A stretch of 20,000 bases of DNA from an uncultured virus (IMG/VR IMGVR_UViG_3300022602_000070) (Duplodnaviria; Heunggongvirae; Uroviricota; Caudoviricetes), in the IMG/VR virus record IMGVR_UViG_3300022602_000070; one strand, given 5' to 3'. How positions within the stretch are numbered: the first letter of the stretch is position 1; the number at the start of each line of letters is the position of its first letter. Shown piece after piece: positions 736 to 14,625 of the stretch. Under the pieces are notes generated by a model. It was not told the DNA's origin. It worked only from the letters and a program-made list of their open reading frames with translations, and did not search any database. Both the position numbers and the translations under genes were made by a program.

Positions 736-1725
736 ATGGCAACTTTAGCAGAAATCAGAGCAAAACTTAAGGCATCCGAATCAAAAGGATCAGACAATCA
801 AAGATCAGGCGGAGACAAATCAATTTATCCGTTTTGGAATCTTAAAGAAGGTGGCGAATCTACACTTAGATTTTTACCAGATGGTAACACCGACAACACT
901 TTTTTCTGGGTAGAACGAGCAATGATCAAATTGCCATTCTCAGGAATCAAAGGTGAATCAGAAAGCAAAAACATCACAGTACAAGTTCCATGCGTAGAAA
1001 TGTATGGCGACACTTGCCCAATCTTGGCAGAAGTACGTGGATGGTTCAAAGACCCTGCATTAGAAGACATGGGTCGTAAATACTGGAAGAAACGTAGTTA
1101 CATTTTCCAAGGGTTTGTTGCAGAAGACGGACTCGGAGAGAAAGACGAAGAAAAACCAGAAAATCCAATTCGTCGTTTTATTATTGGACCTCAAATCTTT
1201 ACATCAATTCGTGCGGCACTTGTCGATCCAGAATTGGAAGATTTGCCAACTGACTACGTGCATGGTTTAGACTATCGCATGAAGAAAGGTTCAAAAGGCG
1301 GCTACGCAGACTACTCAACATCAAGTTGGGCACGTCGTGAGCGTCCACTTAGTGACGAAGAACAAGCGGCTATCAAACAACATGGTTTGTTTAATCTAAC
1401 AGACTTTTTGCCTAAAAAGCCAGGCGAAGTTGAATTGAAAGTTATGAAGGAAATGTTCGAAGCATCAGTTGACGGCGAACCATATGACATGGAACGTTGG
1501 GGTCAATATTTCAAACCAGCAGGTATGAGCCAAAACACTGGCGATCCTGTGAAGTCAACTCCTAAAGCATCTGCACCAGTAGATGATATCGATGAAGATG
1601 AAGCACCAGCTAAAGTTGCTAAGACTGCTCCAGCAGTAGAAGCAAAAGCAGAAGCAACTGGTGCAAGTGGCGATTCACGTGCCCAAGATATTTTGGCAAT
1701 GATTCGCAATCGTCAAAAGCAATAA
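736..1725 (+). CDS. gp32: Single-stranded DNA-binding protein, T4 gp32-like
   Basis: LRFLPD, C..MYG..CPI, YWKKRSY, K..KGGYADYSTS motifs, acidic/Ala-rich tail ending DILAMIRNRQ. AAGGAG RBS. Directly upstream of uvsX. Confidence 0.85.
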   Translation: MATLAEIRAKLKASESKGSDNQRSGGDKSIYPFWNLKEGGESTLRFLPDGNTDNTFFWVERAMIKLPFSGIKGESESKNITVQVPCVEMYGDTCPILAEVRGWFKDPALEDMGRKYWKKRSYIFQGFVAEDGLGEKDEEKPENPIRRFIIGPQIFTSIRAALVDPELEDLPTDYVHGLDYRMKKGSKGGYADYSTSSWARRERPLSDEEQAAIKQHGLFNLTDFLPKKPGEVELKVMKEMFEASVDGEPYDMERWGQYFKPAGMSQNTGDPVKSTPKASAPVDDIDEDEAPAKVAKTAPAVEAKAEATGASGDSRAQDILAMIRNRQKQ

Positions 1726-1790: not shown

Positions 1791-2846
1791 ATGGCCACAA
1801 AAGCCTTCGATCTATCGAAATTTAGAAAGACCTTGACTAAGAGTATTGACGGTCTAGGTATTGGGTTTAACGACCCAACTGATTGGGTAAGCACAGGTAA
1901 CTTTGCTTTGAACTATCTAATCAGTGGTGACTTTAACAAAGGTATTCCTTTGGGCAAGGTTACAGTATTTGCTGGCGAGTCGGGCGCTGGTAAGTCATAT
2001 ATTTGTTCTGGTAACATTGTTAAGAACGCACAAGAGCAAGGCATTTATGTTATTCTTGTAGACAGTGAAAATGCATTAGATGAAAAATGGTTACATGCAT
2101 TAGGTGTAGATACTAGTGAAGAAAAACTTCTCAAGTTGAACATGGCTATGATTGATGATGTGGCAAAAACAATCCACGAATTCATGACAGAATACAAAGC
2201 TATGGAACAACGTCCTAAGGTCTTATTTGTCATAGACAGTTTGGGTATGTTGCTTACCCCTACCGATATCAATCAGTTTGAAGCGGGAGATCTTAAAGGC
2301 GACATGGGTCGTAAACCTAAAGCATTAACAGCATTGGTTCGTAATTGTGTAAACATGTTCGGTAACTATAACGTAGGTATGGTTTGTACAAATCACACAT
2401 ACGCAAGTCAAGATATGTTCGATCCAGATGACAAAATTTCAGGCGGACAAGGCTTCGTTTATGCAAGTTCTATCGTAGTTGCTATGAAGAAATTGAAGTT
2501 GAAAGAAGACGAAGACGGTAACAAGGTTTCGGAAGTAAACGGTATTCGTGCCGCTTGTAAGATTATGAAAACTCGTTACGCAAAGCCTTTTGAAACACTA
2601 CAAGTAAAGATCCCATACGAAACAGGTATGAATCCTTACAGTGGTTTAGTCGACTTGTGCGAGAAAGCTGGATTGTTAAAACAAGAAGGTAATAGACTCA
2701 AGTGGGTTGATCCGGATACAGGTGAGGAATTCAAATTCTACCGAAAAGAATGGAAAGATGATAAATTAGATATGATAATGGCAAAATTCCATATCAAACC
2801 TACAACAACTACCATTCCTGAGGAGACAGAAGAAAATGTTGAATGA
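1791..2846 (+). CDS. uvsX: RecA-like recombinase UvsX
   Basis: STGNFALNYLISG, Walker A GESGAGKS, VDSENALD, Walker B VIDSLG, TNHTY, ISGG motifs. Confidence 0.93.
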   Translation: MATKAFDLSKFRKTLTKSIDGLGIGFNDPTDWVSTGNFALNYLISGDFNKGIPLGKVTVFAGESGAGKSYICSGNIVKNAQEQGIYVILVDSENALDEKWLHALGVDTSEEKLLKLNMAMIDDVAKTIHEFMTEYKAMEQRPKVLFVIDSLGMLLTPTDINQFEAGDLKGDMGRKPKALTALVRNCVNMFGNYNVGMVCTNHTYASQDMFDPDDKISGGQGFVYASSIVVAMKKLKLKEDEDGNKVSEVNGIRAACKIMKTRYAKPFETLQVKIPYETGMNPYSGLVDLCEKAGLLKQEGNRLKWVDPDTGEEFKFYRKEWKDDKLDMIMAKFHIKPTTTTIPEETEENVE

Positions 2847-3081
2847 GACACAAATCGGTGACATCTGGTTGCTATTCGCAGATTATATTGACAAAAAAGT
2901 AATTGACAGTGTAGCTGAGCGTTATGTAGATTTACTAGCCGATTTCGGTACTAGTGATCGTGTAATGCAAAATGCAACAGGCGTCGACGGTGTCCTAGAT
3001 TCTGCAATCGAATATTATCTCGATGAAGAGTCTGATGAAGAAGAAGAAACAAACTATAACGAAGAAGACGAGGATTATTAA
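2836..3081 (+). CDS. Small acidic hypothetical protein
   Basis: 81 aa, overlaps both uvsX and uvsY, GGAG upstream, D/E-rich C-terminus. Confidence 0.75.
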   Translation: MLNETQIGDIWLLFADYIDKKVIDSVAERYVDLLADFGTSDRVMQNATGVDGVLDSAIEYYLDEESDEEEETNYNEEDEDY

Positions 3082-3536
3082 TGGGTTGGTATTCCGATAT
3101 AGCTAAAGATATCAGCAATATTCCTGCGGCAGTGGCATTCTACGAAGCAGAACTAGTTGAAGCACGAACCGAAGTTAAACTTGGTGGTAACGTAGAAAGA
3201 GCCAGTGCATCATTACCAGGAATAGTTGAACATCGATTCAGCCAATTGCAAGAAATTGAAGCCATATTGGAATATCTTAACATTGAATTGCGTCGTTTAA
3301 AAAGTAGTTTCTTTAGAAAGTATTTGGAAAACTATCAACGTGCTCTTAGTAGCAGAGATTGTGAACGTTACGTGGAAGGCGAGGCCGATGTTGTTGATAT
3401 GGAAAAAATTATCAACGAATTTGCCTTGCTAAGAAACAAATGGTTGGGTATCACTAAAGGTCTTGACCAAAAACAATGGCAAATTACTAACATTGTTAAA
3501 TTGCGTGTTGCAGGTATGGAAGACGCTAGTTTATAA
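3081..3536 (+). CDS. uvsY: Recombination mediator, UvsY-like
   Basis: 151-aa helical protein with a YLENYQRALSSRD..RYVEGE.DV segment and a W-Q-I-x-N-I-V-K-L-R C-terminus typical of UvsY; located between uvsX and uvsW. Confidence 0.7.
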   Translation: MGWYSDIAKDISNIPAAVAFYEAELVEARTEVKLGGNVERASASLPGIVEHRFSQLQEIEAILEYLNIELRRLKSSFFRKYLENYQRALSSRDCERYVEGEADVVDMEKIINEFALLRNKWLGITKGLDQKQWQITNIVKLRVAGMEDASL

Positions 3537-6304: not shown

Positions 6305-6811
6305 ATGCAGATATTAACATTAGACAACCAAACATTTTCATTAAACAATTTACCAGAAGAGGTTGATGAAAATACTAGATTCGCTGTATTAGATAACAGC
6401 AATCCGGCAGATCCAGATTTTTTGTTTATGCCGCTGATATTCTTAGAAAGTTTTAACGCACCAGCTATGGTATTGCGCATCGGAGATGATGAAATAGCTA
6501 TGCCACTTGATTGGTGTATAGCTGTAGGAGATAGCACTAGTGCTTGTGACATTGAAATTTTACCTTTAACTAGTTTAAATGATAGAGGATTTGAAGCATT
6601 GTGTTTTAATCCATTAAGTTCGTTTAGGGTAGAGTTTAAAAAGATAGAAATTGTAAATTTTTATAATGATGTTAAATGGTATTTTCCTAAAATGAAAAAC
6701 GGCCAATTATTATCAACTCCTACACGTTTTGGTCACAAGCCCGACTGCGTATATTTTGTTAAAGAAATATCAAAACAAAATGAAATTATTCAATTGGATA
6801 AAATACTATGA
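6305..6811 (+). CDS. Hypothetical protein, beta-rich
   Basis: 168-aa ORF with AAGGA RBS, packed in the operon. Confidence 0.8.
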   Translation: MQILTLDNQTFSLNNLPEEVDENTRFAVLDNSNPADPDFLFMPLIFLESFNAPAMVLRIGDDEIAMPLDWCIAVGDSTSACDIEILPLTSLNDRGFEALCFNPLSSFRVEFKKIEIVNFYNDVKWYFPKMKNGQLLSTPTRFGHKPDCVYFVKEISKQNEIIQLDKIL

Positions 6812-7455
6812 GTTTAAAGATAGCATATTTTCAACCTACTGTTATTTGTATTGACAATATTCCTCCCGTGGAGTTTAGTAAAATATATACGTTAGTAGAA
6901 GCATTGCATAGCAGACCAGAACTAAACGATTCCGGCAATCCATTGATTAGCATTCGTGGCGGACAACAAATACAAATTTTTCCTAATGACAAATTAGATA
7001 TAGATGTTTCTTGGTTATTAAGTTATATTAAAAGTATTTGTCAAGGCTATTTAGAAATTATTACACAACAAGCTGGTGTAAACGATCTAAAACTATGTGA
7101 CATTATGATTAATAGTGTATGGACTATTCGACAAACAGAAGGCGAATATCAAGAAATGCACACACATCCTGCCGGCAATTTATCTGGAAATATGTACATT
7201 AGTGCCCCAGAATTAGTTGAAAACAGCCAACCAAGCGACAGTCAGATATTATTTAGATTACCTGCAACTAGAGATATTAACAGGTTTGTTATGACTGATA
7301 CTTGGAAATATAGTCCAACACCAGGAACTGTTTTAGTATTCCCAAGTCATATTCCGCACACAGTATATCCTTGGCGCGGCCAGGGCACACGTACTGTATT
7401 GGCTTTTGATGCAAGGTTAATTCCAAAGGAGGATCTATTCAATGGGGACGCTTAA
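6808..7455 (+). CDS. 2OG-Fe(II) oxygenase superfamily protein (TIGR02466-like, HxH type)
   Basis: W......G.YQEMHTH...LSG.MY, then P.PG.VLVFPS.IPH.V.P and R.VLAFD: DSBH metal and 2OG ligands. Confidence 0.85.
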   Translation: MSLKIAYFQPTVICIDNIPPVEFSKIYTLVEALHSRPELNDSGNPLISIRGGQQIQIFPNDKLDIDVSWLLSYIKSICQGYLEIITQQAGVNDLKLCDIMINSVWTIRQTEGEYQEMHTHPAGNLSGNMYISAPELVENSQPSDSQILFRLPATRDINRFVMTDTWKYSPTPGTVLVFPSHIPHTVYPWRGQGTRTVLAFDARLIPKEDLFNGDA

Positions 7456-7753
7456 ACCAGGTGTTACATACGTTTATGAAAGAGACAATGGAGTTGTATA
7501 TTCTCGAGAATTTGGCGCGGCGCCTGATACACGACAAATAGTTGGTTGGGAATACGATCCTGTAAACGGACATAAAATCGATCCAGAAGAAATGAAAAGA
7601 TTCGATGTACGCAGAGCTACTGGCGATAAAGAATTGGCTGATCATAACGAATGGATTAAAATTCGTTTGGCAGGAAAAACCAATCCCGCTTTACAACAAG
7701 CTATAGATCGTGTTAAAATACTATATAGACTAAGCGTAGAAAAATATGAGTGA
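7442..7753 (+). CDS. Hypothetical protein
   Basis: 103-aa ORF with GGAGG RBS, overlapping both neighbours. Confidence 0.75.
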   Translation: MGTLKPGVTYVYERDNGVVYSREFGAAPDTRQIVGWEYDPVNGHKIDPEEMKRFDVRRATGDKELADHNEWIKIRLAGKTNPALQQAIDRVKILYRLSVEKYE

Positions 7754-8225
7754 TAAAATCGAATTAAAAGAAAAGATAGCATTTGTAGACATGAACGTTC
7801 GTGCGGCTTGGGACGAAATGACCCCCGAACAACAAAAGAGTCTCAAAAGTGAATTCTTTATTTTAAACAGATATATCAGTAGTGCTCAAGATCAAAAGCG
7901 AGATATACAAGAACATTTTGTATTAACAGTTAACGAATATTTTAATAAAAACTGGAACGATTTACAAAAACATCCTAAACTATTATGGTTGTTATTGTGT
8001 ATGTGCAGTTGGAATGGTGAAAAAACATTCTATCATAATTGGATTGGTGCTAAAAAGAAAACAGGCACTGGTGGCAAGAAAGTTAAATTCCTTGAAGAAA
8101 TTTATCCTACACGTAAGAGAGACGAAATTGAATTGTTGGCGGCAATAACTACTGACAAAGAAATAAAAGATCTTGCTAGAAAGTACGGATTAGATGAAGC
8201 TACTATTGCTAAAAAATTAAAATGA
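7746..8225 (+). CDS. Probable clamp-loader small subunit (T4 gp62-like)
   Basis: F-I-L-N-R-Y-I-S, V-N-E-Y-F-N, W-I-x-x-K-K and a helical tail resemble gp62; size and replication context fit. Recognised from memory only. Confidence 0.5.
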   Translation: MSDKIELKEKIAFVDMNVRAAWDEMTPEQQKSLKSEFFILNRYISSAQDQKRDIQEHFVLTVNEYFNKNWNDLQKHPKLLWLLLCMCSWNGEKTFYHNWIGAKKKTGTGGKKVKFLEEIYPTRKRDEIELLAAITTDKEIKDLARKYGLDEATIAKKLK

Positions 8226-8917
8226 TGGCGTTAGTTAATCAACCTTATGTATGCGGTCATTGTAACAAAGGCTTCATGCAGGAAAAAACTTTAGCAGTAC
8301 ATGTTTGCGAGCAAAAACGCAGATACTTGTCGCGAACAGAAAAACATGTTATACTAGCATTTGATACATTTCAAAAATTTTATAAATTAAATCAACCTAA
8401 TTCTAAACAGGATAAAACTTATGAAGATTTTAGTAAAAGCCCTTACTATAATGCTTTTGTTAAGTTTGGCAGTTTTGTCAGCAATGTTAATCCTCTCTAC
8501 CCGGACAGGTTCATTGACTGGGTTGTACGAAGCGGCGTCAAGTTGGATCACTGGTGCAGAGAAGACCTCTATGACGAATACGTCTTCGACCTTATTAGAA
8601 ACGAAACAGTCGAAACTGCCCTCCAAAGAACAATCCAAACGATGATGGCTTGGGCAGATGATCATAACGCATCGTGGAATCATTATTTTTTATATGTTAG
8701 TTTGAGTCGTGCATGTTATGATATTAAGGATGGTAAAATTAGTCCATGGGTAGTATTAAATAGTAGCAGTGGTAAATTGATGCTACAAAAGTTTAGTGAC
8801 GAACAATTAGGGCACATACAAAAAATTATCGATCCTCAATTTTGGGTTAGCAAGTTTAAAAAATTACCAGCTGATGCGGCACTAGTTAAAGATGTTGTTA
8901 AGGAATCTAATATATGA
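8222..8917 (+). CDS. Hypothetical protein with an N-terminal zinc finger (CxxC-x12-H-x-C)
   Basis: YVCGHCNKGFMQEKTLAVHVC, a C2H2-like pattern. Confidence 0.75.
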   Translation: MMALVNQPYVCGHCNKGFMQEKTLAVHVCEQKRRYLSRTEKHVILAFDTFQKFYKLNQPNSKQDKTYEDFSKSPYYNAFVKFGSFVSNVNPLYPDRFIDWVVRSGVKLDHWCREDLYDEYVFDLIRNETVETALQRTIQTMMAWADDHNASWNHYFLYVSLSRACYDIKDGKISPWVVLNSSSGKLMLQKFSDEQLGHIQKIIDPQFWVSKFKKLPADAALVKDVVKESNI

Positions 8918-9078
8918 ACTCACCCACAACTTGGTTATTACAGGACGGAACTATAGTTGAAGATATCCCTCAACAAAACCGTTGTCCTGATATATGGAAA
9001 TTAGTAAACCCTGAAACTGAAGAAGCATATAATCCTACAAAAGAAGAACCTAAAAAATGGGTACACACGGACTTTTAA
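8914..9078 (+). CDS. Small hypothetical protein (54 aa, MNSPTTWLLQDG...WVHTDF), not in the ORF track
   Basis: ATGA overlap with the upstream stop, AAGGA RBS, and its TAA abuts the next ATG at 9079, filling the gap exactly. Confidence 0.7.
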   Translation: MNSPTTWLLQDGTIVEDIPQQNRCPDIWKLVNPETEEAYNPTKEEPKKWVHTDF

Positions 9079-9648
9079 ATGCCAGATATTGACATCGACT
9101 TTGCTGACAGAACTCGAGCTTTAGAAGTTTTAAAGCATATAGATGCACGACTTGATACTGATAAAAAACATAATACAGGTGTGTACGTACAAAGCATACC
9201 ATATAATCCAGTAACAGGAATAAGTACAATAGAGTATAAAGAAGCTGAGGAAAGGGGTTATTTTAAAATAGACTTCTTAAATGTCAGCGTATATGAAGGT
9301 GTGAAAAACAAAGCACACTTGACACAACTATTGGAGACTGAACCGTTATGGGATTTGTTAATAGACGACAACTTCGTCAACTTGCTCTTTCACGTCAACG
9401 GGCATGGTTCTATCTTGAGACAAATGAAGCCTACCTCGATAGAACAGTTGGCCGCAGTTTTGGCTATGATTCGCCCAGCCAAACGTTATCTGATTGGGAA
9501 AGACTGGCCGACAGTGATGACGGAAATTTGGACGAAACCGGAAGGGGATGAATACTTCTTTAAGAAGGCACATGCTATTGCTTACGCACATGTGATTGTT
9601 GTACAGATGAATTTAATTTGTGAAAGTATTAGCTACGAATTCAGTTAA
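9079..9648 (+). CDS. dnaE: Miniature DNA polymerase III alpha (family C, DnaE)-like catalytic core
   Basis: MPDIDIDF, KHNTGVY, GYFKIDFL, KP.S.EQLAAVLAMIRP and YFFKKAHAIAY match DnaE motifs PDxDxD, HaaG, KxDxL, RPGP and FNKSH in order. Confidence 0.8.
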   Translation: MPDIDIDFADRTRALEVLKHIDARLDTDKKHNTGVYVQSIPYNPVTGISTIEYKEAEERGYFKIDFLNVSVYEGVKNKAHLTQLLETEPLWDLLIDDNFVNLLFHVNGHGSILRQMKPTSIEQLAAVLAMIRPAKRYLIGKDWPTVMTEIWTKPEGDEYFFKKAHAIAYAHVIVVQMNLICESISYEFS

Positions 9649-10019
9649 CGAGTTTTACGTACTAATTGAACACTTTTACGTTTTACTCGTTTTAAAGTAA
9701 GATTCATTAAATTTACAACCGGCCCTAAAATAACCCTAGTATCTTTGCTGTTAAATGTTTTAATAGCATACGCAAATGGGTGTATTTGATCCTTACAAAA
9801 TACATTTATTGGGAATTGACGATTTGATTCCCACCACCATGCTTCTCCTATTTCTAAAAAGCTAGTTTTCTCTTCAGGAGTTCGAAGTGCATTTAAGTCG
9901 TAAAAACTAGTGACAAATTGATCCTGGTTTATTATAATACCGATATATTCGGTTTCACCGTAGTTTAATACGCTGATAAAAGGTAAATTGTGTTCTATAT
10001 TGTCTCTTAGTTTTGCCAT
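9645..10019 (-). CDS. Hypothetical protein (124 aa, basic C-terminus)
   Basis: ORF converges on the dnaE-like gene with overlapping stops; preceded by TATAAATA on the minus strand. Confidence 0.75.
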   Translation of the reverse strand: MAKLRDNIEHNLPFISVLNYGETEYIGIIINQDQFVTSFYDLNALRTPEEKTSFLEIGEAWWWESNRQFPINVFCKDQIHPFAYAIKTFNSKDTRVILGPVVNLMNLTLKRVKRKSVQLVRKTR

Positions 10020-10024
10020 AAATA
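10018..10024 (+). promoter_or_regulatory. Late-type promoter element ATAAATA for the 10048 gene
   Basis: Matches 7 of 8 bases of T4 late TATAAATA, 23 nt upstream of ATG 10048. Confidence 0.5.
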
Positions 10025-10047
10025 CTATTATTAAAGGTTCCTGGGTA

Positions 10048-11145
10048 ATGCAAAAAGTTCAAAGTTATTTATATCCTAACAGAGTTATACTATTGGCTGA
10101 TGTGGCAGGATTCACTGTGGAGAACAAAGTCGTGTATGCAAGAAATGTAAAAATATATCGAGGTGTTGATAATGTCATAGAATTTGACATACAAAACGCT
10201 GACCAAAAACGTATAGACTTAACCACTCTATCTAACATAGAAGTTAATGTAATGGACTCCGGCGGCAAAGCATTATCTAATAGCCCATACGCTATTTCAT
10301 TAGTTACTTCTGCATCAGCAACAAACGCTAATGTTACTGCATTAGTTCCAGCATCGAAAGTTACTTCCACAACAATCACTATGCCTACGTCTGACATAAC
10401 AGGTACATTTGGAGTAGGTTATATTTTAAATGGCACTGGCATTTCCGGGCCCGTAGTAGTTAGCGGTGTTAGTGCAGATGTTGATAGCGCAACTACAACA
10501 TTAACTGTAACTTTTCCTAATCAAACAGTAACAGCTCGCACTAACATCAGCATAACTAATGTGGTCAAAGGTCTAGCTACTTGTACAATTCCAGCATCAG
10601 ATTTACGGGATTTGAACGAGCAATATTTAAATTTTAGCGTTACTGCTATGCAAGGTAGCAACACTATTCCATTGTATTGCGATAGCCAGTTTGGTGCTGT
10701 AGGAACTTTAGAGTTAGTTGGCAATGCAACACCAACATATCGTCCTAAAACAGTATACGATAAATTTGTTGGGGAAATTAATTTCTTAGGCAACGTTACT
10801 AATCACAGTCCTGCAATACCATGTAAATTCTACGAAGCTGAAGCAACACAGTACATGAATTTTGAAGTTTATCTAAATAATTTTGTCGGTAGCGTGTATG
10901 TTGAAGCTACAGAAGATATGAACATTTCTGTAAGTTCATTTTTGAACGCACCTCAACTCCAATCATTTACTTGTACTACTCCAACTACTACAACATTGTC
11001 TTTTAGCAATGTTCCAGTATCGAGCACAGGTGGCCAATACAACTACATGCGTGTAAGTTGGCTATATCCAGATGTTTGGCAATATGGTGGACAAGATCCC
11101 ACTGTTACTTACGGATCGGTTACCAAAGTTATTGCTTGTTCTTAA
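10048..11145 (+). CDS. Probable virion structural protein (beta-rich; N-terminus resembles baseplate/BppU-like Ig folds)
   Basis: IYRGVDNVIEFDIQNADQKRIDLT start, Thr/Val/Ser/Asn-rich, late-type promoter. ATG 10048 preferred to TTG 9988, which overlaps the divergent gene. Confidence 0.55.
   Translation: MQKVQSYLYPNRVILLADVAGFTVENKVVYARNVKIYRGVDNVIEFDIQNADQKRIDLTTLSNIEVNVMDSGGKALSNSPYAISLVTSASATNANVTALVPASKVTSTTITMPTSDITGTFGVGYILNGTGISGPVVVSGVSADVDSATTTLTVTFPNQTVTARTNISITNVVKGLATCTIPASDLRDLNEQYLNFSVTAMQGSNTIPLYCDSQFGAVGTLELVGNATPTYRPKTVYDKFVGEINFLGNVTNHSPAIPCKFYEAEATQYMNFEVYLNNFVGSVYVEATEDMNISVSSFLNAPQLQSFTCTTPTTTTLSFSNVPVSSTGGQYNYMRVSWLYPDVWQYGGQDPTVTYGSVTKVIACS
10066..10073 (-). promoter_or_regulatory. 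T4-type late promoter TATAAATA for the 9645..10019 gene
   Basis: Plus strand reads TATTTATA. The same GGATATAAATA context recurs at 15767-15777. Confidence 0.6.
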
Positions 11146-11160
11146 TTATTCTGCTATAAT
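11132..11160 (+). promoter_or_regulatory. Sigma70 promoter (extended -10) for primase, probably leaderless
   Basis: TTGCTT (11132-11137), 17-nt spacer, TGcTATAAT (TATAAT 11155-11160). ATG 5 nt downstream. Confidence 0.7.
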
Positions 11161-11165
11161 AAGGC

Positions 11166-12137
11166 ATGAGCCTTATAGCGGATACATTACTTACTTACTT
11201 ACCTGCAAAGCGTAAACACACTCCAAGCGGTTGGATTGGGTTTAATGCTGTCTGCTGTGATGACAAAAGACAGCGAGGCGGGTTCATTGTCAACGGCGGT
11301 GATGCAGTTAGCTATCATTGTTTCAATTGTGGATTCAAATGTAGTTGGCAACCCGGCAGACATATAAGTCAAAAAATGAATAAGTTCATGCGTGATTTAA
11401 ATATCCCGGATGATGTTATTGCCCAATTAAGACTAGAAGCATTAAAACTAGATCAAAATAATACAGCAGAAATTCGTAGTATCATTCCAAAGTTTGATGT
11501 TCGTGCTTTGCCTATGGATAGTCAACTTATTACAGACTTATTAAACGACCCTCCAGAAAAACTTATACCTGTATTAGAATACATGGTTAGTAGAAAAATT
11601 TATCCTGAAGAGTTTCCGTTTTATTGGACACCTAAAGTTGGATTCAGCAACAGACTTATTATCCCATTTTTATTTAATAACGAAATTGTAGGCTGGACTG
11701 CTAGAACTATCGGAGATGCTACTCCTAAATATTTGTCGGAACAACAACCGGGTTATGTGTTTAATTTAGATAATCAAAAGGACAATCGTGAGTTCGTAAT
11801 TGTTAGTGAAGGCCCGTTTGATGCGCTAAGTATTGATGGCTGTGCAGTGCTCGGAGCAGAGATTAAAGACAGTCAAAATTGGTTATTAAAGCAATTAGGA
11901 AAAGAGCTGATCCTAGTTCCAGATAGAGATCATGAAGGGCCTAAGACAATCGAACAAGCAATCGAATTAGGCTGGAGTGTTAGCATGCCCGAATGGCCTG
12001 ACGGTGTTAAAGACATTAACGATGCTGTAATAAAACTTGGAAGACTTGCCACTCTTTGGTTAATTGTTAGTGCAAAAGAATCTAATGAATTAAAGATTCG
12101 ATTACGAATGAAAACTTGGTTTAAGGAAATAAAATGA
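11166..12137 (+). CDS. dnaG: DNA primase (T4 gp61/DnaG-like)
   Basis: Zinc finger CC...HCFNC, RLIIP, G..AR, PKY, TOPRIM EGPFDA, PDRD..G, KD.ND. Confidence 0.9.
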   Translation: MSLIADTLLTYLPAKRKHTPSGWIGFNAVCCDDKRQRGGFIVNGGDAVSYHCFNCGFKCSWQPGRHISQKMNKFMRDLNIPDDVIAQLRLEALKLDQNNTAEIRSIIPKFDVRALPMDSQLITDLLNDPPEKLIPVLEYMVSRKIYPEEFPFYWTPKVGFSNRLIIPFLFNNEIVGWTARTIGDATPKYLSEQQPGYVFNLDNQKDNREFVIVSEGPFDALSIDGCAVLGAEIKDSQNWLLKQLGKELILVPDRDHEGPKTIEQAIELGWSVSMPEWPDGVKDINDAVIKLGRLATLWLIVSAKESNELKIRLRMKTWFKEIK

Positions 12138-12247
12138 AAAGATTTATTAACTGGTTGCTTGCACCGTATCGCAAGTACAAAGAAGATAAGGCGTATAAAC
12201 AACGCATCGAAGAATTGCGTAAACGTGATCCATATATCTACAAATGA
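12134..12247 (+). CDS. Small basic protein (37 aa, MKRFINWLLAPYRKYKEDKAYKQRIEELRKRDPYIYK), not in the ORF track
   Basis: ATGA overlaps at both ends (primase stop and carbamoyltransferase start); AAGGA RBS. Confidence 0.75.
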   Translation: MKRFINWLLAPYRKYKEDKAYKQRIEELRKRDPYIYK

Positions 12248-13185
12248 TACTCTGGGGCGTCAATGCATTAAATCACGGACATAGTATTGCTGTCTTTAAA
12301 GATGGCAAATTTGTCCATAATTATGTTGGTTCTAGTGATCAACTACAAAGTGCAACCACAGTGCCGGCACTAGGGTTAGGAAGTCCTGATAGAATTTTTT
12401 GGTACGAACGTCCATGGATTAAAAAGGCAAGACAAATTTATGCAGGACAATATCGCACAGCATTGAACTTGAATGTGTTACCCAAGCGATACATGAATAA
12501 TTACAAATATGCACCTATCACATATACTCCTCACCATGCTAGTCATGCTGCCGCTGGTTATTATACTAGTCCGTTTAACCATTGTGCAGTTGTTGTTCTT
12601 GATGCAATCGGAGAATTTGAGTGTGCCACAATCTGGGAAGCAAAACACGGTGAAATGACTAAAGTGTGGAGTCGTAGTTATCCACATAGTTTGGGTTTGT
12701 TTTATAGTGCATTTACAAAACTATGCGGACTTACTCCAATCAAAGATGAATACTTGTTACAACAAATGGCCCAGCAAGGTGACAAGTGGCGCTATTTTAA
12801 AGAAGTTAATAGTTACATAACTGGCACAGTTGATTTGAATTATAATTTCCACAGAGGGGTATTAAATTGGCCTTATCCCATTAATAATTTACAAGATCAG
12901 TGTGATATAGCGGCCGCAGTACAAGATGCATTTGAAGTACAAATCGGCTCGGTAATGAGCTTGGCAAAAGAATTAACGAATGCAGACTGTTTGGTTTATA
13001 TGGGCGGGTGTGCTATGAATAGCCAAGCAAACAAACGCTATGTTGAACCTATGTTTAAGTATCGTTGGAGTTTGCCCAACCCCGGAGATCCAAGCAGTAG
13101 TATAGGCGCAGTCGTGTATCATACCAAACAAAGAGTATGGGATCACAAGTGGGATCCTGTCAAACACATTGAGATTAACGTATAA
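12244..13185 (+). CDS. Carbamoyltransferase (NodU/CmcH/TobZ family), N-terminal Kae1-like domain only
   Basis: HHASHAAAGYYTSPF, VLDAIGE, YPHSLGLFYS, DIAAAVQ, GGCAMN..AN, PNPGD...IGA. Ends at 313 aa without the C-terminal YrdC-like domain. Confidence 0.85.
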   Translation: MILWGVNALNHGHSIAVFKDGKFVHNYVGSSDQLQSATTVPALGLGSPDRIFWYERPWIKKARQIYAGQYRTALNLNVLPKRYMNNYKYAPITYTPHHASHAAAGYYTSPFNHCAVVVLDAIGEFECATIWEAKHGEMTKVWSRSYPHSLGLFYSAFTKLCGLTPIKDEYLLQQMAQQGDKWRYFKEVNSYITGTVDLNYNFHRGVLNWPYPINNLQDQCDIAAAVQDAFEVQIGSVMSLAKELTNADCLVYMGGCAMNSQANKRYVEPMFKYRWSLPNPGDPSSSIGAVVYHTKQRVWDHKWDPVKHIEINV

Positions 13186-13203: not shown

Positions 13204-14625
13204 ATGGCACAAAATATAAATTACGGATTTGAAGTACAGAAATTGTACTTGGAAATGATGCTTAGTGACGCAGAAACATTCGTGCGTTGCCAAAGTATTT
13301 TTGATCATTCATTGTTTGATCGCAAGCTACAGGACTCGGCAGAGTTTATCAACAAGTACGTAGAAGAGTACAGCGTACTACCTACATTTGACATTGTAAA
13401 TGCGTCGACTAATGCCAATTTAAAGGTACCCGAAGGTGTTAAAGAAGCCAACTACGATTGGGTGTTAAATGACTTTGAAACTTTTATTAGACACAAAGGA
13501 CTCGAACGAGCAATCTTAGAATCAGCTGACTTGTTGGAAAAAGGCGAGTATGGTCCTGTAGAAGAAAAAATTAAAAAAGCAGTACAAATTGGTTTACAAC
13601 GAGACATGGGTACTGATTATTTCGAAGATCCCCGTGCAAGACTAGCAAGGATTAAAGATAAGAATGGACAAATATCGACAGGTTGGAAAAGTATTGACGA
13701 CAAACTTTATGGCGGGTTTAATCGCGGTGAGCTCAACATTTGGGCTGGTGGTTCTGGCGCTGGTAAATCCTTATTTCTCGCAAATCTCGGTGTCAATTAT
13801 GCTCTCGCTGGTCTCAATGTTCTTTACCTTACACTAGAGTTGAGTGAAGACTTGGTGTGTATGCGTATTGATGCTATGACCACTGGAATCCCTACGAGAG
13901 AGATTTTTAAGAGCTTGGATGATGTTGAAATGAAAGTTAAAATGATTGGTAAAAAATCCGGTCATTTGCAGGTCAAGTACATGCCAAGTGGTAAAACTGC
14001 CAACGACATTCGTGCGTACATGAAAGAGTATGAAGTCAAAATGGGACATAAGATTGACGTATTACTAGTCGACTACATGGACTTGATTATGCCTTTGAGC
14101 AAGCGTATTAGTGCTGAAAATTTGTTTGTCAAAGACAAGTATGTAAGTGAAGAATTGCGTAATTTGGCAGTGGAAAAGAACTGTGTGTTTGTAACTGCGG
14201 CACAGTTGAATCGTGGCGCTGTTGAAGAAGTTGAGTTTGATCACAGTCACATTTCAGGTGGATTAAGTAAGATTCAAACTGCGGATAACGTGTTTGGTAT
14301 CTTTACAAGTCGTGCTATGCGTGAGCGTGGACGTTATCAAATTCAGCTGATGAAGACACGTAGTAGCAGTGGCGTTGGTATGAAAATTGACTTGGAGTTT
14401 AATATTGATACACTACGCATCACTGACTTGGACGAGCAAGATGGTTATGGCAATGGAGCTGCCAGTGCTGGTACAACATTGCTCAACAGTATCAAGCAAC
14501 GTCAAACAATTACAGCAGACACAACTGATCCAACAGAAGGTGCGGCCCTGCCCAAAGTTAGAGCCGAAGTTGCCAGCAGTAAATTGAGAGAGTTGTTGAG
14601 TAATTTACCTGGTGATGATATATAA
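13204..14625 (+). CDS. dnaB: Replicative DNA helicase (T4 gp41/DnaB family)
   Basis: STGWKSID..LYGG..RGEL, Walker A GGSGAGKS, TLELSE, VDYMDL, TAAQLNR, TADNV, MKTR. Confidence 0.93.
   Translation: MAQNINYGFEVQKLYLEMMLSDAETFVRCQSIFDHSLFDRKLQDSAEFINKYVEEYSVLPTFDIVNASTNANLKVPEGVKEANYDWVLNDFETFIRHKGLERAILESADLLEKGEYGPVEEKIKKAVQIGLQRDMGTDYFEDPRARLARIKDKNGQISTGWKSIDDKLYGGFNRGELNIWAGGSGAGKSLFLANLGVNYALAGLNVLYLTLELSEDLVCMRIDAMTTGIPTREIFKSLDDVEMKVKMIGKKSGHLQVKYMPSGKTANDIRAYMKEYEVKMGHKIDVLLVDYMDLIMPLSKRISAENLFVKDKYVSEELRNLAVEKNCVFVTAAQLNRGAVEEVEFDHSHISGGLSKIQTADNVFGIFTSRAMRERGRYQIQLMKTRSSSGVGMKIDLEFNIDTLRITDLDEQDGYGNGAASAGTTLLNSIKQRQTITADTTDPTEGAALPKVRAEVASSKLRELLSNLPGDDI

Follow-up and report, generated by a model that had tools for sequence, protein, structure and literature searches.

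The C-terminal unit of a probable split minimal DNA polymerase III alpha in an uncultivated lake phage, its putative partner in relatives and a candidate nested gene

The C-terminal unit and its likeness to DnaE

We analyzed a stretch of 20,000 nucleotides (nt) from an uncultured virus of the Caudoviricetes (IMG/VR record IMGVR_UViG_3300022602_000070), hereafter the window, in which a gene for a protein of 189 amino acids (aa) with the core motifs of DnaE, the C-family DNA polymerase III (Pol III) alpha of bacteria, lies among T4-like replication genes (Table 1). Judged by its sequence, the product is the C-terminal unit (C-unit) of the split 'minimal DNA polymerase III alpha' reported from sequence, in its passages on group 2.2 jumbo phages, by Iyer, Anantharaman, Krishnan, Burroughs and Aravind (2021, Viruses 13:63, PMC7824862), and the window holds an uncultivated member of this family. 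The novelty implied for the protein in a first-pass annotation of the same DNA does not survive that report and, with the kind already in print, the window's C-unit in itself adds little. What is new here is a measured split point (393/400 in Escherichia coli DnaE numbering), one natural fusion, a co-fold of the two units, and support for an open reading frame (ORF) nested within the polymerase gene.

The translation carries, in order, P2-D3-I4-D5-I6-D7, H31-N-T-G-V35, K63-I-D65-F-L, I131-R-P133 and F161-K-K-A-H165; all the DnaE core motifs are thus present where the first-pass annotation had placed them. In the first motif, D5 and D7 correspond to D401 and D403, catalytic residues of E. coli DnaE. 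Profile matches to PHROG families and to structures in the PDB place the similarity far beyond chance. The family phrog_11778 ('DNA polymerase') matches residues 3-183 on profile positions 8-194 of 197 (E 1.8e-67), and phrog_405, a full-length polymerase profile of 1,190 positions, matches at E 1.5e-9. A profile made from an alignment of 85 representatives of clusters at 50% identity (alignment A1) matched only Pol III alpha among PDB sequences (9 of 9 matches; E. coli 2HNH, E 6.8e-6). In the alignment with 2HNH, K-x-D falls on E. coli K553-F-D555, A-L-I-R-P on 635-640 (RP on 639-640) and FKKSH on F756-N-K-S-H760.

The predicted fold agrees, and the fold comparison that had been suggested as a check came out on the side of DnaE. 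An AlphaFold2 model of the C-unit built with A1 reached a predicted local distance difference test score (pLDDT) of 96.9 and a predicted template modeling score of 0.89, and the top 16 rows of a Foldseek search with it were all Pol III alpha (probability up to 1.00). In a second look with VIA-align, the top 15 rows were all DnaE or PolC (Z 6.2-9.7; 180-188 residues aligned; root-mean-square deviation (rmsd) 3.3-4.3 Å), and the next, unrelated row dropped to Z 3.5. Model residues 1-186 span E. coli DnaE 400-781 and Thermus aquaticus 461-838, so that the 189 residues of the phage protein stand for ~380 of DnaE.

That segments between the motifs are internally deleted had also been claimed, and the distances bear this out: D7 and D65 are 58 residues apart, compared to 152 in E. 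coli (D403 to D555), and R132 and K163 are 31 apart, compared to 119 (R639 to K758). By the domain limits that Lamers and colleagues reportedly set in 2006, the first gap is where the thumb is located and the second is in the index finger. The absence of whole domains stands as well. The protein begins at the D-x-D motif and Pfam gives no PHP match; the model ends at E. coli ~781, and the clamp-binding, OB and tau-binding regions are absent. The GS loop, too, is absent from the C-unit chain. The C-terminal tails show no conservation in A1, and we therefore propose no clamp-binding peptide.

Across the family, D3, D5, K63, D65, R132 and P133 are invariant in A1, and D7, H31, G34, P41, W91, P118, K162 and H165 are kept in at least 90% of the representatives. 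The third motif Asp is found in 79 out of 81 C-units, with one N and one E. All 8,000 scored candidates at 90% identity match the family, which therefore has at least 8,000 clusters at that level and 423 at 50% identity; the 120 clusters listed are 186-196 aa each. The selection analysis used 77 coding sequences from the window and 80 IMG/VR loci, 18 of them with exactly 189 codons. Among the resulting 17 comparisons with the window, one was identical in protein, and the other 16 gave proportions of differing non-synonymous sites of 0.096-0.185 against 0.52-0.79 for synonymous sites. The ratio of non-synonymous to synonymous rates (dN/dS) was 0.06-0.14 in the four pairs with a correctable dS, the other pairs being saturated. 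By these sequence comparisons the C-unit gene is under purifying selection, and the decay that had been named as a refuting condition finds no support, nor was a full-length dnaE found in the five relatives described below.

A tblastn search of phage records with the C-unit gave 96 matches, all below 60% identity (best, Atu_ph07 at 56%), and all from jumbo phages of the Atu_ph07, Phosso, PA5oct, RaK2, 121Q and GAP32 kind; a megablast search of window positions 7000-12000 against phage records gave no match. Atu_ph07 is a named member of group 2.2, and in the passages of the paper on this group its phages are described as having no other Pol III domains (PMC7824862). The window shares with the system of Iyer et al. 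the sequence family, a C-unit free of PHP, thumb and C-terminal domains, and the T4-like core, while the relatives add a family B polymerase (PolB) and a distant N-terminal unit. It differs in nothing essential; the copy in the window is uncultivated and at most 56% identical to any cultivated phage copy. Some depositors and the Joint Genome Institute (JGI) had already given the label 'DNA polymerase III alpha' to the C-unit family, and the main text of the PA5oct omics paper does not contain the term 'DNA polymerase'. After two runs flagged as possible sources were set aside, the stretch was found with at least half of the sampled words in 18 runs from lake-water and freshwater metagenomes (17 coded studies, some of which may share one campaign, and one run without a named study), and no RNA run was listed for it.

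Table 1. Features of the window, with positions counted from its first nucleotide.
Feature	Position	Strand	Remarks
gp32-like single-stranded DNA-binding protein	736-1725	+	T4-like recombination/replication setting
UvsX	1791-2846	+	T4-like recombination/replication setting
81-aa ORF	2836-3081	+	No known family; between UvsX and UvsY
UvsY	3081-3536	+	T4-like recombination/replication setting
2OG-Fe(II) oxygenase	6808-7455	+	PF13759, E 7.7e-19; upstream of the polymerase gene
Conserved upstream neighbor, 231 aa	8222..8917	+	phrog_11058, function unknown; N-terminal Cys/His pattern; not a DnaE piece
54-codon ORF	8914..9078	+	In the frame of the polymerase gene, a single TAA between (TAAATG); kept in only 9 of 80 loci
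C-terminal unit of split minimal Pol III alpha	9079..9648	+	189 aa, ATG start; palm strands with three acidic residues and a reduced fingers remnant
PDIDIDF motif	9082..9102	+	D5, D7 correspond to E. coli D401, D403 (model residue 1 on E. coli 400)
FKIDFL motif	9262..9279	+	K63, D65 invariant; aligned to E. coli K553, D555
Nested 67-codon ATG ORF	9348..9551	+	Candidate overprinted gene; offset-2 (-1) frame within the polymerase gene
IRP motif	9469..9477	+	R132, P133 invariant; aligned to E. coli 'FRPG' 638-641
FKKAH motif	9559..9573	+	Aligned to E. coli F756-N-K-S-H760; K162, H165 kept in at least 90%
Convergent 124-aa ORF	9645..10019	-	phrog_11637, unknown; 3' end overlaps the 3' end of the polymerase gene by 4 nt
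T4 gp61-type primase	11166..12137	+	Downstream in the same gene order in all relatives inspected
Carbamoyltransferase N-terminal domain gene	12244-13185	+	PF02543, E 1.4e-25; between primase and replicative helicase
DnaB-like (gp41-type) replicative helicase	13204..14625	+	Library match

The N-terminal unit and the split point

The nearest record to the window (G001) is a 16.5-kilobase (kb) fragment, and the search for a partner was made in relatives, namely in five large ones: Phosso, Atu_ph07 and the IMG/VR contigs G003 (71% complete), G004 (83%) and G005 (100%), whose C-units in the three contigs are 72-75% identical to that of the window. We found one N-terminal unit (N-unit) of 161-177 aa in each of the five. 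In Phosso and Atu_ph07 it is a 177-aa ORF that ends in ...F-D/S-E-F-L-N/E and accounts for the single PF07733 match above cut-off in each genome (profile positions ~20-97, just before the point where the C-unit starts); in G003, G004 and G005 it has 168, 168 and 161 aa. No N-unit was found in G002 (42% complete) or in four other contigs with a C-unit (23-41% complete), fragments that are uninformative on this point. Among phage records, the N-unit gave 101 matches, and its tally by host genus is nearly equal to that of the 96 C-unit matches (N-unit/C-unit: Escherichia 34/34, Erwinia 8/8, Salmonella 8/8, Pseudomonas 13/11, Klebsiella 10/11). The two loci matched by both queries, L136 and L140, encode full-length DnaEs of the usual phage type, PHP domain included. 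In L136 (604-3204, + strand), F-N-K is followed by Cys and unrelated sequence in place of S-H, and judged by eye the FNKSH motif looks like one that carries an inserted intein.

The two genes are far apart. Their distance is ~34 kb in CBB, ~44 kb in PA5oct, 164-184 kb in G003, G004 and G005, ~182 kb in Atu_ph07 and ~224 kb in Phosso, and the N-unit is absent at all 80 C-unit loci taken with flanks of up to 3 kb. The first-pass annotation had proposed that the C-unit is one subunit of a multiply split polymerase, with neighboring ORFs as candidate partners. A split is borne out in the relatives, where five out of five have an N-unit; the 'multiply' is not supported, as only two DnaE-like pieces exist in each of these five genomes. 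The location of the partner was likewise wrong: in the relatives it lies 34-225 kb away instead of adjoining the C-unit, the neighboring ORFs at 8222 and 9645 are conserved without DnaE similarity, and the ORF at 8914 is kept in only 9 of 80 loci. As a separate observation, the N-unit gene of all five relatives is followed on its strand, after ~245-500 nt, by an ORF of 107-116 aa that resembles GroES when judged by eye (L005 2226-2576; L006 744-1079; L092 929-1252; L093 899-1243; L094 893-1237), and in Phosso and Atu_ph07 an ORF of 136-153 aa stands between the two.

All 31 extracted N-unit ORFs end at one site (F-L-R or F-F-K), and the loop W-G-V-G-R-G-S-S-V, which holds the GRGS sequence, is invariant in 30 out of 30. 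The N-unit profile matched only DnaE among PDB sequences (9 of 9), with residues 93-166 on E. coli 319-392. A model of the unit (pLDDT 86.4) was aligned by VIA-align over residues 70-167 to E. coli 277-393 (Z 10.5-11.7, rmsd 2.3-2.5 Å, ~95 residues); all 15 rows were C-family polymerases, and the first ~69 residues match nothing among the rows listed. With the last residue of the N-unit on E. coli 393 and residue 1 of the C-unit on 400, the split lies between 393 and 400. On the models, the cut falls inside the palm, leaving the GS loop and the following helices on one side and the D-x-D strand on the other. Neither unit has spare length for an intein fragment, from which we infer a non-covalent assembly.

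The comparison with single-chain enzymes shows what is kept and what is lost. DnaE (E. coli 2HNH, T. aquaticus 2HPI/3E0D, Mycobacterium tuberculosis 5LEW) and PolC (3F2B) have a palm and fingers core homologous to that of the C-unit, with the acidic triad, K-x-D, RP and F-N/K-K-S-H in the same order. DnaE is one chain of 1,160 residues, whereas the phage system has two chains of 189 and ~168 residues that lack PHP, thumb, clamp-, tau- and OB-parts and ~100 residues of the fingers. The palm of DnaE and PolC holds GS loop and triad in a single chain, whereas in the phages the triad is on the C-unit and the GS loop, in the relatives, on the N-unit. In cyanobacteria, dnaE is also split, each half carrying an intein fragment through which the halves are trans-spliced into the full-length enzyme. 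The phage system resembles it in having dnaE as two distant genes; it differs in its split site and in that the ends of the phage units are DnaE-homologous, with no extra length for an intein, which rules out splicing.

The search for other polymerase parts in the five large relatives, a check suggested at the outset, revealed no pieces beyond the N-unit and the C-unit. A PHP domain was detected in none of the five genomes, compared to 14 out of 14 controls; PF07733 gave one match above cut-off per genome, which is the N-unit; PF17657, a finger family, gave one weak match per genome, which is the C-unit itself; and no full-length dnaE was found. The PolB expected in a T4-like replisome is present in four out of five: as one frame in Phosso (1,013 aa), G003 (890 aa) and G005 (901 aa), and in Atu_ph07 as two adjacent open frames with 418 and 578 aa (L007/L010, ~212.3-213.7 kb), where it may be split or interrupted.

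Among the 150 best of 423 representative matches, we observed one protein in which both units are fused (P0231, 375 aa). The N-unit profile matches it over residues 14-185 (hhalign probability 99.8%, E 1.3e-28); after a short linker, the match to the C-unit covers residues 190-371 (E 2.4e-26). The protein matches both phrog_11127, the N-unit family, and phrog_11778, and one continuous PF07733 match runs across the junction (residues 97-207, 59.6 bits). We regard this fusion as suggestive, not firm, support for the two units forming one enzyme. Three longer forms from a word search were rejected as true fusions: P0271 joins a C-unit to a piece of helicase at 'DVYKRQ', which is presumably translated sequencing adapter; P0272 is a C-unit with an unrelated 160-aa extension; and P0273 is a PHP/exonuclease protein that ends in 32 C-unit residues.

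We also co-folded the N-unit of G004 (30 aligned rows) with the C-unit of the window (85 rows). The pair scored 0.89, compared to 0.01 for the best of three controls; this mark is reached by 116 out of 157 solved complexes and 2 out of 215 mismatched pairs, counts that are only roughly valid with custom alignments. Runs agreed in at least 96% of contacts, with a partner pLDDT of at least 88. In the surest predicted contacts, W132 and G133 of the N-unit, in the WGVGRGSS loop, pack on C-unit residues 6-8 of the D-x-D strand; the last helix of the N-unit (153-160) lies on the FKKAH helix (163-171).

A proposed two-chain polymerase and its alternatives

We propose that the C-unit and the distant N-unit together rebuild a small template-dependent DNA polymerase, a minimal Pol III alpha encoded by two genes, and from the sequences and models we consider this probable. 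The units would associate non-covalently as a heterodimer of ~355 residues and rebuild one Pol-beta-like palm with a composite active site, to which the N-unit would supply the nucleotide-binding GS loop and the C-unit the two-metal site (D5, D7, D65), K63 and the reduced fingers remnant. Neither unit alone should be active. The heterodimer would be a template-dependent DNA polymerase, probably distributive and suited to short synthesis because it has no thumb, clamp contacts or proofreading parts, and it would act beside the family B replicase, where it might, for example, fill gaps, take part in repair or synthesize short patches. If it does polymerize DNA, it would show the smallest core with which the bacterial replicase fold can work, bear on the origin of C-family polymerases, and place a bacterial-type palm next to an archaeo-eukaryotic-type PolB in one replisome. 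Iyer et al. see in this enzyme a model of what the ancestral form was like (PMC7824862).

Several observations weigh against this proposal. The matches of the C-unit to the Pfam families of DnaE are weak: PF17657 on residues 107-134 reaches only 14.8 bits (curated cut-off 22), and PF07733 on residues 1-25 (profile 101-124) only 12 bits (cut-off 23.9). The Foldseek E value of the C-unit model is only 1.6e-3 (about 2e-3); no row for either model was at E 0.001 or lower, though the top 16 (C-unit) and top 18 (N-unit) rows were all C-family polymerases. The thumb is missing together with ~100 residues of the fingers (E. coli ~642-740). Thumb and fingers in DnaE hold the DNA and form part of the nucleotide pocket, and with these parts missing templated synthesis is not assured. 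The 20 kb of the window contain no N-unit, and the evidence for N-unit and PolB comes from relatives, among which G004 (83% complete) and G002 yielded no PolB. The fusion P0231 is a one-member cluster on one contig of 2,415 nt, with no relatives in IMG/VR or JGI metagenome contigs. The N-unit in the co-fold is a stand-in from G004, whose C-unit is 75% identical to that of the window, and the good score may reflect remembered structures of single-chain DnaE. In the literature library searched, no member of the family turned up as the subject of a biochemical or genetic experiment.

One alternative is a two-chain nucleotidyltransferase with a non-replicative job, such as untemplated tailing, the making of a nucleotide signal or of a modified nucleotide, or anti-defense, an explanation that we consider rather unlikely. 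The loss of the thumb and of much of the fingers would suit it, as would the family B replicase that the relatives already have and the placement of the N- and C-unit genes far apart instead of in one operon; moreover, the Pol-beta-like nucleotidyltransferase fold is common to many non-polymerase enzymes. However, the part retained beyond the palm is the DnaE fingers remnant, with its invariant RP and its FKKSH helix; the structural relatives of both units are C-family polymerases only; and each of the five phages inspected has the C-unit gene in its replication module, upstream of the genes for primase and helicase. A protein without catalysis that merely keeps a polymerase-like fold and serves the T4-like replisome as a scaffold or regulator would account for the loss of most DNA-holding parts of DnaE; we give it little credence, since K63 and the metal-binding aspartates are invariant across 85 diverged clusters and the GRGS loop of the N-unit is invariant in all 30. 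Finally, the short length of the C-unit and its start right at the catalytic motif might point to decay from a once full-length dnaE, or to a protein that acts without a partner, but this is highly improbable given the number and uniform length of the clusters, the same gene order in 78 out of 80 loci, the purifying selection, the five relatives in which no full-length dnaE was found, and a nucleotide-binding GS loop that is absent from the C-unit and present in the N-unit.

The nested reading frame and the genes around the locus

To describe the ORF nested in the polymerase gene, we used 69 distinct coding sequences, from the window and IMG/VR relatives at 69-100% protein identity; the sequences are related, and the counts below are not independent events. 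The longest open span in the offset-2 frame averages 71.1 codons, compared to 34.2 in shuffles of synonymous codons, and for 66 out of 69 genes a span as long as the observed one arises in no more than 5% of 100 shuffles. The other alternative frame gave 33.2 codons, compared to 33.5 in shuffles, with 2 out of 69 genes at that level. Relative to the numbers computed from pooled codon usage, stop codons in the offset-2 frame are depleted in the middle of the gene (codons 89-156, 51 observed and 330.4 expected) and not on either side of it (codons 1-87, 792 and 734.2; codons 158-189, 164 and 157.5); the corresponding ratios for the other frame, in codons 1-87, 89-156 and 158-189, are 0.96, 1.11 and 1.01. 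Codon 90 ends in A in 67 out of 69 genes (36.2 expected), which creates the nested ATG with the next codon. The amino acid at codon 90 varies (L 60, I 7, V 1, P 1), and the W91 that follows is TGG in 69 out of 69. A Shine-Dalgarno-like word (GGAG, GAGG or AGGA) stands 5-18 nt upstream of the nested ATG in 62 out of 69 genes, compared to 20.5 expected and a background of 9%.

Counter to a nested gene, the overlap shows no drop in the synonymous diversity of the polymerase frame (0.54, compared to 0.44 and 0.46), and the sequence of the nested product thus seems little constrained. The product had no family match in the library searches. Outside the clade of the window, the longest span in the nested frame is 21 codons in Atu_ph07, 23 in PA5oct and 22 in RaK2; the frame is thus closed in these three phages, which do not carry the ORF as the window clade does, and in Phosso it is open over 57 codons without an ATG. 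If real, the nested gene would be young and, going by these sequences, specific to the lake-phage clade of the window. Rz1 inside Rz is a known overprinted phage gene, and the nested ORF resembles it in being short, in having a start codon of its own and in lying entirely within the outer gene in a different frame; it differs in that the synonymous sites of the outer gene are not visibly constrained and in that the candidate is known from sequence alone. Two further-reaching readings are tentative suggestions about which we are doubtful. In one, the ~355-residue two-chain enzyme is an active template-dependent polymerase; it would be the smallest of the C family, would do without thumb, PHP or clamp contacts and would be gated by the assembly of its two separately encoded half-sites. 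In the other, the C-unit gene of this clade also encodes a young overprinted protein of ~66 residues, begun at the conserved internal ATG.

The wider gene order is consistent with the T4-like replication setting that had been described for the window, which has the gp32-like, UvsX, UvsY, primase and DnaB-like genes as well as another helicase and an M23 peptidase gene. Neighbor conservation was counted over the 80 IMG/VR C-unit loci. Both the 231-aa ORF upstream of the polymerase gene and the convergent ORF downstream of it are kept in 78 out of 80. The upstream ORF matches only clusters of 'hypothetical protein' in the Atlas, which yielded nothing usable for the convergent ORF; the latter (phrog_11637) has a median identity of 84% in its 78 loci and is also present in Phosso, Atu_ph07, PA5oct and RaK2. 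In these four phages a ~230-aa ORF comes first, followed by the C-unit gene, the convergent ORF of ~120 aa, a gene for a structural protein and then the primase gene.

The 3' ends of the polymerase gene and the convergent ORF overlap by 4 nt in the window (9645-9648) and in Phosso (L001 8558-8561), by 14 nt in Atu_ph07 (L002 8554-8567), and by 17 nt in PA5oct and RaK2 (L141 2069-2085; L142 2081-2097), so that there is no space for terminators between the polymerase gene and the ~120-aa ORF. The carbamoyltransferase-like and 2OG-Fe(II) oxygenase genes of the window resemble auxiliary metabolic genes placed within a replication module.

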